Below are positions 26,663 through 32,000 of a DNA stretch of 64,000 nucleotides, piece after piece. Source of the stretch: Haliotis cracherodii. Its lineage: Eukaryota. Both the position numbers and the translations under genes were made by a program. The notes beneath the pieces were generated by a model that did no database searches, was not told where the DNA came from, and saw only the letters and a list, made by a program, of their open reading frames with translations. The stretch lies in NCBI RefSeq assembly GCF_022045235.1, contig NW_027266330.1, forward strand, positions 26,164,001 to 26,228,000, written 5' to 3'. The stretch's first letter is position 1. Every line of letters starts with the position of its first letter.

Positions 26663-28239
26663 TACACGTGCGGCACAGGCAAGGGTGTTATGTCTTGAAA
26701 TGGGTAGGCATGTGCTGTGTGCAGTCATGTTTTCTACCCATATCACCTCTCCCTACCACCTGCCTAGAAACAATATGGCCAATACTGGTAGGGGGTTTGA
26801 GGAACCATGCTTGTATGGCCAGGAGACAGCTCTCAAAAATTCAAGTTGATTATTTGTGAGATACCTCATGTGGACATACTTTAGGATTTATGATACAAAG
26901 GAATTATTTTGACACTAATTTACCTCAAGGGGAAGCATACCCTATATATTTCTTGTTTATGTGTGATTTTGTAATTGTGCACACTTCAGAAGCTGGTGAC
27001 AGAAAAAGGCTTATGTTCTAGGTCTCATTATTCGTTGCGAATAATCAGTTGATTTTAACAATTAGAAAAAGTTGAAATAAAAGACAGAAGCCCTGAGGTT
27101 CCAGAAATCCTTTTACAAGGCTATTAACAAATCAGCTGCTGAATACAAGAACAACATTGGAGTCTGTGATTGCACATTTCCAATCTTCATGTCCGTGTTT
27201 GTTCAAATGACATTTCTACCTGAGTGATCGTCATGCCACGTTCCAAAATGAAGTCACTCTGATTGAGCCAGGACAATAGCAAGGCTTAATGTAAGAATAA
27301 CACAACCATATTAAATTGGAATTAAAGGTGAGATTAAACATGTCTGAACACCTCTGTACAACAAGCAACAGCCATAATTACCCTTGGTCATTTAACTGAC
27401 CGCTCATTGTTAATCACGGTTGTTGGTATAAGGCCTTGTAGACATAGGTAAGTAGGTCTCAATTGAAGTGCAACTGGCCTAATGACCATTTAGGGGATTA
27501 AAGGCATTAAAGGATTATCAGTCTGTGAGCTACTGTAGCTGTGTTGCGGTGTTGTTACACCAGTTAGGGGCAATTGTTATGTCTAGTACTTAGACTGGGG
27601 ATGCTTCAGTGAGCAGCTCTGTTATGTTTACACTGAGGTTGAGTGTTGATTACAAGGGAGTATGAGTGACACATGTACCTTGTTAGCAAGTAGAAACTGT
27701 CAACAAAGTTGGACACTGATTGTTACTACAATTTATTGTAAGCTGCTTGATAATAAATGATACATTTTATATCCTCTGGTAGTGAATATGGAGTTTAATC
27801 ATCTAACTCATGGCAGTGTATTCAATCGGACCAAAATGAAAGTTTTGGTAAGAGGCATTTATCAATAATATCTTTTTAAATATTCATCAAAGGTTGTGGT
27901 TTTAAAAAAATCATACAAATATCATGTAATCAGTTTTTAATATGTGCTTGGTCAAATTAATAGATTGAGAAAACATGACAAATTGCAAGATAATCGTATC
28001 CATCTGTTGCTAAATACTGCACTATTCAAGTCATCGTTACCAACACTGTAATTTGGACAGTCAAATTATCTTGTCAGTTCTGTTCATGACAGCTCATCAT
28101 TAAAGAAAGTGTTGCAAACACTAGCTCACAGTTAGTTCACCTAACACAGGATTCACTGCTGGAGGCTAGTGCTAACACCTTTGCAATAGATGCCAGGCAG
28201 AGAGAGTCCTGTCCATTGAGCTGTGTGTGTCCAGTAGCT

Positions 28240-28400
28240 GATCCCTCATTGGCTGGGAGCCACTGCCTCAGCCGGCTGCTTACACAGTGAGAGAGAGAGA
28301 GAGGACTACGCTTAGCTGTACAACAGCGGGTCTAACTAAGCCAGGTCAGTCTGGAGCTGTCAAACTTCACCGACTCCACATGTGCAAGTGAGAGAGAGAG
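28240..28400 (+). promoter_or_regulatory. Candidate internal promoter for the alternative first exon
   Basis: Reverse NF-Y box CTCATTGGCT (ATTGG at 28248-28252), (GA)n runs at 28289-28303 and 28390-28400, INR-like TCAGTC at 28346-28351, locally raised GC. Lies ~600-700 nt upstream of ATG 28973. Confidence 0.4.
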
Positions 28401-28972
28401 GAAGGACGGGAAGAACATTGTAGGAGTGTAAACACAACCCGGTGTATGTTCTCTCTATCATTTCGGAGTCTACTGCAGTTGCATCATTTCATTCATGATG
28501 TTTGTTACATGACAGTGGGGATTGTGTTGATGTACAGCCAGCAGTCATGTTGAATGGCTGATTATTGGTAGTTCTGTGTTTACATCAGCAACAGTCATAT
28601 CGATATCGATGTGGGGCTATTGATGATGGATGTGCATATTCATGGTGCTGTTGAATAATTCCGTTCTTCTCCCTGAATAAATAATTCCCATCAAGGACAA
28701 GGTTCCAGATCAGAGCAGCACCTGATCAGAGCGCACTCGGGAACAACAGTTCAGTAGACATCAGCACTTTTGTACGGGTGTCATACATGGAATAGCGGAT
28801 GCAATAGATTGTTGTGTGAGGTCACAGGACGGCAGTGATGAATCAGAAGGAAATATTGCTGCAAGTTTGTTTCCATTTCCCTGAGACCTAACATTTGTGA
28901 CATCCATTTCCTTTTGTGGAGGAAATTTTAAACTTTCTCATATTGACTTTTTGTGCCACTCCAACATCAACC

Positions 28973-29050
28973 ATGGTTCTGCTAGAAGAGGAAGATGACC
29001 TCTTTTACTATTACCGCATTGTGGATAATTACTATTATATGCTAGTCGAG
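28973..29050 (+). CDS. MAP4K4: Candidate alternative first coding exon of the msn/MAP4K4-like gene (MVLLEEEDDLFYYYRIVDNYYYMLVE)
   Basis: ATG in ACCATGG Kozak context with an in-frame stop upstream at 28898. Exactly 26 codons end at a consensus GAG|GTAAGT donor. Phase 0 matches the phase-0 start of exon 58858. No homology support. Confidence 0.6.
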
Positions 29051-32000
29051 GTAAGTGTCAATTTCATGTAATTAACATGCTATTAACATGTTAAGTATGT
29101 ATCCATGTCAATTGCTCATTGCTATCTTGATATATAGATCTATGTAAGTAGTATACAATGAGAGCATTATTTGCCAGGTCATAGAAGTTAATATGGAAAG
29201 TTAATATTGGTGATTATCGCTGAATTCATAATCGATGATTTTTGTTGTAACAATACCCTAGATGTAAATTTGTTGGTACAAAATGGCAAGGATCAACAGT
29301 CTGGTTCCTGGTACATGGACTGAATTAGGAAGCTGTGTAGCTCTCAGCTAATTGTACCAGGCTCTCAGAACCTGTCAAGATGTTCTCAACTATCTACACG
29401 CTTTTGGCTGGTATCAGATGGTTCTGGTTAGTGCTCTCTTCATGGCTGCCTATTTCACGTGTCAGAAAGCTTTTATATAGGTACATGTATACATACGACT
29501 ATGCGATACCTCTATGGTTCTGTCGACAACCAGTACACCTGGACACGCGTATATTTGTTTAGTGATAGATCCTTGATTGACCATTTACACTATGGTAGGC
29601 GGGGCCCAGGGCATGGCACTGATCGTCACTCATTTCACTCTGCTTATTTCATGAATGTTATTTATTTCCCCGACTCGGATGTCCGTTTCTCTTTTTTTGC
29701 TTTGATAAAGTGTCAGGCGTGACTGGGAGTCAATGTTTGATTCTAGGTATGGGTTGCTCATTTCATGTCATTTATTTCATGAATGCTCCACGTTTCCATG
29801 ACTCATATGTCAATTTCCCTCCCCACTTTGATAGATTGTCTATGTATGATGGACGTACATGCTTGATTCTCTGCATGGGCTGTTTACTCCAAGGTGTCAG
29901 TTTCTTTGATTTGGATGACATATCAGGGCAGGGCACATACCTCGTCAAGCTCATTTTATGTTTTCTTATCTCGGAGGCCATTTAGTATCCAATGAGTGTC
30001 ACATATCTGGAAATGTTGCTTTTTGAATCACCTCCTGTCACATATCACTTGCTGGTGTTCTGTTCCGTTCACGAATGTTATTTCTATTTGATACAGATAC
30101 TATTGTCAGAACAAATAGCTACACATGTTAATGACAGTTTTGTGGTTCTGCTACGGGGTGTAAAACAGACGTAGCATGATTTTAACTCTCCGAGTCTCAG
30201 AGGTTTTACATTAATGGGTTAAATAAAACAAACAGACCCCAGTGCCTCTTCACTTTTTTTTCTACATTTTTTAAGTAAAGTTTGTTTAGAAGATTGAGTT
30301 ACATTTGGATGTCAAACATTTTATTTTACATCAAAGGATAAATTTCATTTTACTCGTCTAGTGGGCTTGGAAGACAGATTGCCATCAGTGCACTTGGTCA
30401 AGACAAATTTGTGTCTGTTTCCTACCCTTACAGAACAATGTATGTGAATAATATTCCTGATAACCAGTAAGATTACAGAGCTACAGCAAGATTAGTCATT
30501 GCTCTACATCTTCATTACAATCTGTTTCAAGTCTTTTAAAAAAAGTGTCATATGCTGTAGCCTGTGTACTATTTAAAGCTCACAGTCCATGTGCTGTAGA
30601 TTTTCGCACAATCAGCTTCACCCCCTCGTATATTTCCCTGCTCTGTGGGGGAGTTAGGTCACTGACTGGTGCTAGACCTCAGCTGTGGCTTCAGTGTTTG
30701 ATCTCGAGTGTTTAACTATTTCACTGCCAACAAAAACTTGTCATTTACATGGAGGCCTCATAAATGGTTTTAATAGGCTATGGAGGAGACATACATTGGC
30801 GTTTTTCTCGCACGATCAGTTTTATTGTAAAAGAAATATGACCTGATGAATGTGCGTGACATGAATTTCATGAATCGTTTGTTTTTCTTAGAAACCTGTT
30901 TTATCATGCAGAGGTTTGTGAATAAAGGTTTTTAATAAAGCCTCCTAAATAGGAGTGTGAAGCATATTTGTTTGATACTTTTGAATCAAAGAATCTATCT
31001 TGTATAGTATTTCTATGTGAATATTTATGAACTATGTTTTGCATGTGACTGTTTCACATCTTTTTCAAAGACTTAAAATAGACACTATGCGATATTTGAT
31101 ATCATTCCTTCCCTACAACAACACTAGCATAAAATCTCCAATTACAACACAATTATTTCAACATACCTTTGAGCTCTTTCTCACAGTAAATAGCACAAGC
31201 ATGTTTACTTTACACGATATCTAAATAAAAGGCAAACAAGGTATCACTACCTATGCCCCCTGGCACGGCCAGTCATCCTCACTGACCAGTACTATGTCCC
31301 TCAGGCATGTCCAGCCGCCATGACTGACCAGGTCTGATATTACTATTGACAGTCAGGTGGGAAATTCCATGATCACTGGAGCCAGACTATGGATTCCTCA
31401 GTATATCACATGTGCATCCAGTGTCTTTGTCTCTCTGTCATTTGCGCATAACATCATTTGGCTGTCTATATTCTGCTATCTCCTATGAATACCCAATCTT
31501 CTAAGGACCAACCTTAATTTCACTCAAGCCCTTTCAAATGTGAAATTCTCGACTCAGTTTATGTTTGCATTGACAATGGTGTTGCTTTGAGGATTTTTGG
31601 AAATTTGTCTATAACATGAAATCCATTATATCTTTTGTAACATGTTTCTTTGAAGATGGTTGAGACTTCCCTAATTTATTATTTATTTCAAGCTAGATTC
31701 AGGATCCACTGTGACTATCCTTGATTGTGTTGTCTGCATGACAAGATGTTCCCTTTGATTATTCTTTACTGAAGTAGAAAAAGGAAATGTATTCATTGTG
31801 TAATCTTCACCAACACAATGCTTCAGTGCTGTACAATCTTCTGTGTGGAGTTGGTTTATGTCTTCAGAATCATGGCAGAATTGTCCCAGGCATCAAGATC
31901 AATTTTCCTGCGTCCACATTTGTATAGCAAACAAGTGCTGTTGCCAATCAATAGCAACATCACAGAGCTGTTTCTTGCTCCATAAAACATTGATTCGTTA

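Follow-up and report, generated by a model that had tools for sequence, protein, structure and literature searches.

A probable internal first exon in the abalone misshapen/MAP4K4 gene predicts a kinase-less CNH isoform with a conserved N-terminus

The window analyzed here is a 64,000-nucleotide stretch of the genome of the abalone Haliotis cracherodii (NW_027266330.1, G000:C67:26,164,001-26,228,000; coordinates below are those of the window, and features lie on the plus strand). It sits inside one 102.6-kb intron of the misshapen/MAP4K4 gene and runs on into the exons that follow. We report that this intron carries a probable alternative first exon, located about 72 kb from the intron start and 29.8 kb ahead of the next constant exon at 58858. 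The exon goes beyond chance: it is the sole candidate of its kind on the plus strand of the intron, it is spliced in three of the four runs examined, and it is conserved as a protein. The explanation that we regard as likely on the whole, taking structure, product, and most likely role together, is that an internal promoter about 72 kb into the intron would start a second mRNA, that its first exon (about 28160/28280-29050) would splice to 58858, and that the resulting kinase-less protein would most likely damp full-length Misshapen.

The locus is assigned to misshapen/MAP4K4 because its exon at 61555-61794 is 100% identical to the misshapen-like kinase P0005 of Haliotis rufescens. The full-length abalone protein (record P0126) has both domains that characterize the GCK-IV kinases, namely a kinase domain (Pkinase, E 6e-65) and a CNH domain at the C-terminus (PF00780, E 3.5e-64). 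Kinase residues 62-318 of this record map to C67:26,087,590-26,106,430 on the same strand, 57-76 kb upstream of the window, where the initial annotation had supposed the kinase exons to lie, and no exon for residues 1-603 of the full-length protein is found within the 64 kb of the window. The intron measures 102.6 kb, from the end of the last constant linker exon (26,120,280 of the contig) to the next constant exon, the one at window 58858.

The coding part of the alternative first exon (28973-29050) opens with ACCATGG at 28973, counts 78 nt or 26 codons, and ends in GAG|GTAAGT at 29050/29051, a phase-0 donor (29051-29056) that matches the phase of the acceptor at 58857/58858. An upstream TGA in the same frame (28898-28900) makes 28973 the first in-frame ATG. 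All of these elements stand where the initial annotation had placed them. Across the plus strand of the whole 102.6-kb intron, this is the one candidate combining an ATG, at least 8 open codons, and a strong phase-0 donor, and the only match to the peptide exon in the abalone genome is the exon itself.

Sequence of the stretch occurs in 22 runs, whose RNA status is guessed for 18 and recorded as RNA for none, and four of these runs were examined over 26800-30000. The junction from 29050 to 58858, on which the initial annotation had staked its model, is present in contigs of three organisms from three studies, X1 (organism A), X9 (organism C), and X10 (organism D). These contigs cover 28278-29050 in X1, 28180-28340 and 28326-29050 in X9, and 28157-29050 in X10, and in each run coverage breaks off at precisely 29050. 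The loose ends beyond that point (29, 27, and 29 letters) match the sequence from 58858 onward with 0, 1, and 1 mismatches, respectively, the differences being silent. In the fourth run, X4 (organism B), both flanks are covered without splice, and the run behaves like DNA. None of the four runs has a loose end on the 5' side, and X1, X9, and X10 have no cover at 26800-28083; the contig starts of the three studies fall within 121 nt, where X4 continues, which is a weak hint that the exon is a first exon. The contigs end only a few letters inside the shared exon, which is consistent with two upstream exons joining there, and both forms may then be present in one sample. The exon is thus found downstream of all kinase exons and spliced to the shared 3' exons, as in an internal-first-exon kinase-less isoform, and we are highly confident in a gene structure in which an internal first exon joins 58858.

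The 5' leader of this exon (28157-28972, about 700-800 nt, with contigs beginning at 28157, 28180, and 28278) is unspliced. Near its 5' end lie a (GA)7 run (28289-28302), which may be a promoter-proximal element, and a second GA run (28390-28399); the plus strand of the intron has no (GA)5+ run besides these two, which is more than chance. The ATTGG at 28248 and the TCAGTC at 28346, which the initial annotation had listed beside the GA runs as an NF-Y box and an initiator-like motif, are present, but their reading as promoter elements is not supported: ATTGG/CCAAT (2.5 per kb) and TCAGT[CT] (0.7 per kb) occur at background frequency in the intron, and TCAGTC lies inside the transcribed part in all three spliced runs and ATTGG in two of them. 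The leader (816 nt) holds 17 upstream ATGs, against an expectation of 21 based on the window, and all of their frames end before the main ATG. These ATGs (28190-28891), which the initial annotation had passed over along with the deep conservation of the new N-terminus itself, open short frames of 2-35 codons and may exert translational control. RNA folding of the leader is unremarkable (z -0.37), leader and exon have no credible match in Rfam, and no repeat family or tandem array extends across 28157-29050.

The same sequence had also been offered as an in-frame cassette exon (28922-29050) of the full-length kinase mRNA. In this genome, the frame is indeed open from 28922, CTAAC at 28888 and GAG at 28919-28921 are present, and an oyster model (P0188) has the peptide internally. 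This alternative is largely refuted, with a very small residual probability. It fails because none of the three spliced runs has a loose end or a contig break at 28922 and because an A at 28929 in X4, X9, and X10 makes TAA of the third cassette codon and so places a stop in the cassette frame in three of the four runs. Furthermore, neither the peptide nor its motif occurs in any of 177 kinase-bearing records, homology begins at the Met, and P0188 is itself without a kinase.

The peptide begins CNH-bearing records at the aligned Met in Octopus bimaculoides (P0196, P0198, P0203, and P0205), in O. vulgaris (P0239), and in P0040, which the tree places as cephalopod-like, and it stands 6 residues from the protein start in P0014 of the ark clam Tegillarca. 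In octopus, P0040, Tegillarca, and oyster P0188, it is joined to NKSE/NKTE, with 11-14 of the 16 core residues identical. A profile built from five peptides and searched against 1.84 billion protein representatives (E <= 0.001) gave 21 matches, all short open reading frames with the core FxxY(R/K)IVDNYYY, in which F, I, V, and YYY (6 of the 16 core positions) are invariant throughout. Most of them start with MV or MI, 8-12 residues ahead of the F, and their acidic stretch is variable and cut short in four. In 19 of the 21, a Val directly follows the core, as expected because the reading frames run through into the GT donor; the two most divergent matches, P0260 and P0261, have no such read-through and may represent spliced forms or sequences of more distantly related animals. 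A unique N-terminal peptide conserved across species is thus found here, as in isoforms of the KS-WNK1 and Citron-N type. Word-index protein searches with the peptide returned the query or nothing and covered cluster representatives alone, so that they are no evidence of absence, and a search of the ESM Atlas gave no usable match.

A metagenome scan led from 145 pattern matches to six loci (L015-L020), in which 32 of the 61 codons that encode the same residue as in the window differ silently. Phase-0 donors are found in all five intron-bearing loci (L015-L019), 0-2 codons from the abalone position. The sixth, L020, is an intron-free contig with an upstream in-frame stop at 186-188 that encodes 577 aa, that is, 75 residues followed by the core, the linker end, and the whole CNH domain, with no kinase. 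Trees place L020 outside the sampled mollusc groups, with P0067 and arthropods (99/94); its origin in a non-mollusc animal is possible and only suggested, because approximately unbiased tests placing it with bivalves, gastropods, cephalopods, or the chiton reject none of these positions (p 0.052, 0.053, 0.13, and 0.14, respectively). Perhaps the motif is shared with other lophotrochozoans (L020 and L015-L018). L015-L018 are tied to misshapen by no more than the motif and the donor, the 3-kb flanks of L015-L019 containing no other misshapen exons. In three loci (L015, L016, and L017), a basic amphipathic helix is also conserved; it lies 31-41 residues ahead of the core and precedes a W-E-x-x-D-x-L version of the motif. 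Its helical moment is 0.61-0.69, compared with a median of 0.14 and a maximum of 0.47 in the linker background, and its net charge is +6/+7. The helix is a possible membrane anchor in longer forms.

The ATG, the frame, and the donor are therefore kept across molluscs, the conservation for which the initial annotation had called. From this pattern of substitution, we infer that the 26-aa N-terminus is under coding selection. A transcript that is non-functional or non-coding, as its long leader with 17 upstream ATGs might suggest, is very improbable, since residues are kept despite silent codon changes and both the Met and the donor phase are conserved. Translation from the ATG at 28973 is predicted with good confidence.

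Using the downstream exons of P0126, the product would count about 513 aa. Its 26-aa N-terminus, with an acidic stretch and the conserved aromatic core (residues 11-26), would be followed by about 140 aa from the proline-rich end of the linker and by the complete CNH propeller. The first intron of the short form (29051-58857, 29.8 kb) coincides with the 3' portion of the full-length gene's 102.6-kb intron. Behind it come the first shared exon (58858-58987, NKSE...), joined by the full-length linker as well as by the new first exon, a shared exon for the proline-rich linker end (59638-59759, with PDLLPP and a PxxP cluster), a shared exon that covers the linker end and the first part of the CNH region (61555-61795), and three further CNH exons (62342-63453; about 62342-62407, 62517-62662, and 63390-63453), the remaining CNH exons extending up to 5.2 kb past the window end. 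The short form dispenses with residues 1-603, among them the kinase and the coiled-coil region, and keeps 6 of the 11 PxxP motifs together with the CNH domain. The region so dropped has been suggested to bind striatins via coiled coils in rat MAP4K4 (PMC8203206). In the short form P0040, the CNH domain is recognized with an E-value of 6.8e-61 (PF00780), the top fold matches are the CNH structures 5o51, 7zty, and 8eec, and no kinase family is matched in P0040 or P0014; the short form is a product of a GCK-IV gene and not a kinase.

AlphaFold2 models of two cephalopod short forms (mean predicted local distance difference test, pLDDT, of 48 and 55) both have a strand-turn-strand at the core, with strands 10-17/20-27 and 13-17/20-24, and the aromatic core is probably a beta-hairpin, modeled at low confidence. 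As aromatic and aliphatic residues occupy both of its faces, the hairpin probably needs a partner, and this partner should be new because the core matches nothing in Pfam (none near the cut-off, 22 members) or in the PDB (best E 0.26). No docking of the hairpin on the CNH domain can be claimed from these models; a complex prediction of the peptide with CNH and kinase, made without alignments, scored 0.30 versus a mark of 0.34 and was counted neither way, and no solved MAP4K4-type CNH structure was found by sequence. The pattern of conserved positions in the peptide is unlike the consensus of FFAT, LIR, ITAM, or dileucine motifs.

The internal first exon and the kinase-less product keeping linker end and CNH, both foreseen in the initial annotation, are thus supported by junction and conservation. 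As to what such a protein would do, we give an even chance to the short form acting as a damper that the gene itself encodes against full-length Misshapen. Its free CNH domain would vie with the full-length protein for Rap2-GTP, integrin tails, and other CNH partners, or would inhibit the kinase in trans, as seen with CNH fragments in Xenopus; place and timing of damping would depend on the separate promoter, and the conserved aromatic core would give the short form a partner or a location that the full-length kinase has not. In Xenopus, kinase-deleted TNIK/MINK is a dominant negative, isolated CNH suppresses both branches of Wnt signaling, and autoinhibition between kinase and CNH within dimers has been proposed (PMC3439448). 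CNH partners include Rap2 (PMC11725784), integrin tails (PMC13221706), and, for the MAP4K4 CNH, Pyk2 (PMC3791834). Because of these suppressing fragments and these partners, a damper is favored over a positive scaffold, the dominant-negative decoy of the initial annotation being an extrapolation from the Xenopus fragments. In either case, the short form is probably more than a passive decoy, since its N-terminus is invariant.

The same transcript might indeed encode a positive, kinase-independent scaffold, with the motif gathering the protein at a membrane, a condensate, or a complex and the CNH domain bringing Rap2, integrins, or the full-length kinase. A pure decoy needs no invariant N-terminus, yet the six core positions do not vary among the 21 profile matches; the unique 30-aa exon of KS-WNK1 has a conserved hydrophobic motif needed for WNK bodies (PMC6014176), Citron-N is a neuronal scaffold (PMC13577275), and the basic amphipathic helix precedes the core in three metagenome loci. 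We nevertheless hold this reading to be rather doubtful, given that isolated CNH fragments suppress signaling in Xenopus (PMC3439448) and that L015-L018, tied to misshapen by motif and donor, are only putative parts of misshapen genes. An N-terminus acting mainly as a tyrosine-phosphorylation switch, with six Tyr after the acidic stretch docking SH2 proteins and the short form serving as a tyrosine-kinase adaptor, would suit the 6 Tyr in 26 residues, the YYY found in 21 of 21 matches, and the binding of Pyk2 by the MAP4K4 CNH (PMC3791834). It appears improbable: Phe, Gln, Lys, Arg, or His freely take the place of the first Tyr cluster, 4 of the 21 matches have a shortened acidic stretch, the strand-turn-strand pattern fits a fold better, and the spacing is unlike that of an ITAM. 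More broadly, and tentatively, at somewhat less than an even chance, the exon may encode an undescribed interaction module, an aromatic beta-hairpin FxxY(R/K)IVDNYYY shared by gastropods, bivalves, and cephalopods and older than the mollusc classes, which would make kinase-less Misshapen a dedicated organizer or brake of the Rap2-Msn-JNK/Hippo pathway with an expression of its own. If this is true, the short form would be a gene-encoded counterpart of the proteolytic vertebrate TNIK/MINK CNH fragments and an invertebrate parallel of KS-WNK1.

Several points weigh against an internal first exon encoding a damper. The four runs are a small share of the 22, their RNA status being guessed; the loose ends, at 27-29 letters, are below the 31-letter mark for bridging, and the runs are known as contigs, so that start, strand, and level are unreadable. 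In oyster model P0188, linker sequence precedes the peptide, which is internal, and the 177 kinase-bearing records are mostly isoforms of a few dozen genes and not independent. The 17 upstream ATGs could cut translation from the ATG at 28973, the window background giving 21, and the pLDDT of the hairpin is under 50 in both models. As for damping, the evidence is vertebrate overexpression, Xenopus homodimers form via the central domain that is mostly gone from the short form (PMC3439448), and the role of CNH has been called contradictory, activation versus restraint of the kinase being unsettled (PMC10132768).

A kinase-less isoform with its own first exon is a known design, as Citron-N, KS-WNK1, and FRNK illustrate. 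The citron kinase family is AGC/ROCK-like, not Ste20. Citron-N likewise stems from a CNH-family kinase gene (CIT) that also yields a kinase-less isoform with interaction domains kept (PMC13577275), but it retains most of a large protein, whereas the abalone form consists of the linker end, the CNH domain, and a new conserved N-terminus. The closest parallel in design is KS-WNK1, which is kinase-defective and has a unique conserved first exon of about 30 residues with a hydrophobic motif (PMC6014176). It differs in belonging to an unrelated kinase, in its Cys-rich instead of Tyr-rich motif, in an exon that arose in sarcopterygians while the abalone exon is common to gastropods, bivalves, and cephalopods, and in a function that is demonstrated (condensates) where that of the abalone form is inferred. 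The Xenopus TNIK/MINK fragments (PMC3439448) are also kinase-free CNH polypeptides of GCK-IV origin that suppress signaling; they result from proteolysis and have no new N-terminus, while the abalone form is encoded by its own first exon. With full-length Misshapen/MAP4K4/TNIK/MINK1/MIG-15, the short form shares the gene and the 3' exons. The GCK-IV variants described are splice variants within the linker, and the available excerpts of these accounts name no internal first exon (PMC8203206, PMC3791834, PMC11727420). Finally, the octopus entries XP_052826367/68/70/71 and CAI9728034 are automated records that open with the homologous peptide followed by linker end and CNH; they are listed as a "mig-15-like" gene of its own beside separate kinase-half records (P0193, P0194, and P0197), not as an isoform of one gene.

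Other features of the locus were observed. At the start of the intron, 41-43 kb upstream of the window, lie two optional phase-0 micro-exons of 18 and 27 nt (L008:6991-7008 and L008:9208-9234), which are present in abalone records; scallop, mussel, and oyster have unrelated short inserts at that junction. Abalone record P0132 begins about 56 residues into the full-length protein, without the glycine-rich loop and the catalytic lysine, and may reflect another start or an annotation artefact. The part of the window from 3000 to 45000 has a steady positive GC skew and a negative AT skew, as expected of a long intron transcribed on the plus strand, and the window holds several interspersed repeat families of 60-250 nt with up to 11 copies in both orientations, some with terminal ACTC runs, resembling short interspersed nuclear elements. 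In many mollusc annotations, CNH-half records break at or near the junction before NKSE (P0006, P0010, P0012, P0039, P0044, P0052, P0057, and P0193-P0198), and several carry differing, probably invented N-termini ahead of NKSE. These breaks suggest that the intron is very long across molluscs.

In the open-access literature, with subscription journals, FlyBase, WormBase, and supplements outside the scope, no publication was found that treats an isoform of this kind for Misshapen/MAP4K4/TNIK/MINK1/MIG-15; a short isoform may already be recorded in fly or worm. A kinase-less isoform with an internal first exon is not described in the available excerpts of PMC11727420, PMC5754208, PMC8203206, PMC8106954, PMC12504175, PMC10132768, and PMC3189609. 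For octopus, databases already contain the protein, entered as a separate gene, and among the abalone records, 15 of the 25 cluster members are all 1026-1090 aa long, while the other 10 could include the short form. The exon is real, conserved, and, within the literature searched, functionally undescribed. The long intron makes annotators split the gene, and records labeled "mig-15-like kinase" in several molluscs are actually kinase-less; RNA interference or expression assays directed at the 3' end would mix the short and full-length forms. Since the short form has its own exon, it could be deleted while the kinase stays intact.

The GCK-IV kinases guide migration and polarity as well as JNK and Hippo signaling, and the mollusc classes split in the Cambrian. 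A natural CNH-only isoform kept since that split would point to a normal function of free CNH protein, and the short form is probably an old, built-in regulator or scaffold for the Misshapen kinase.

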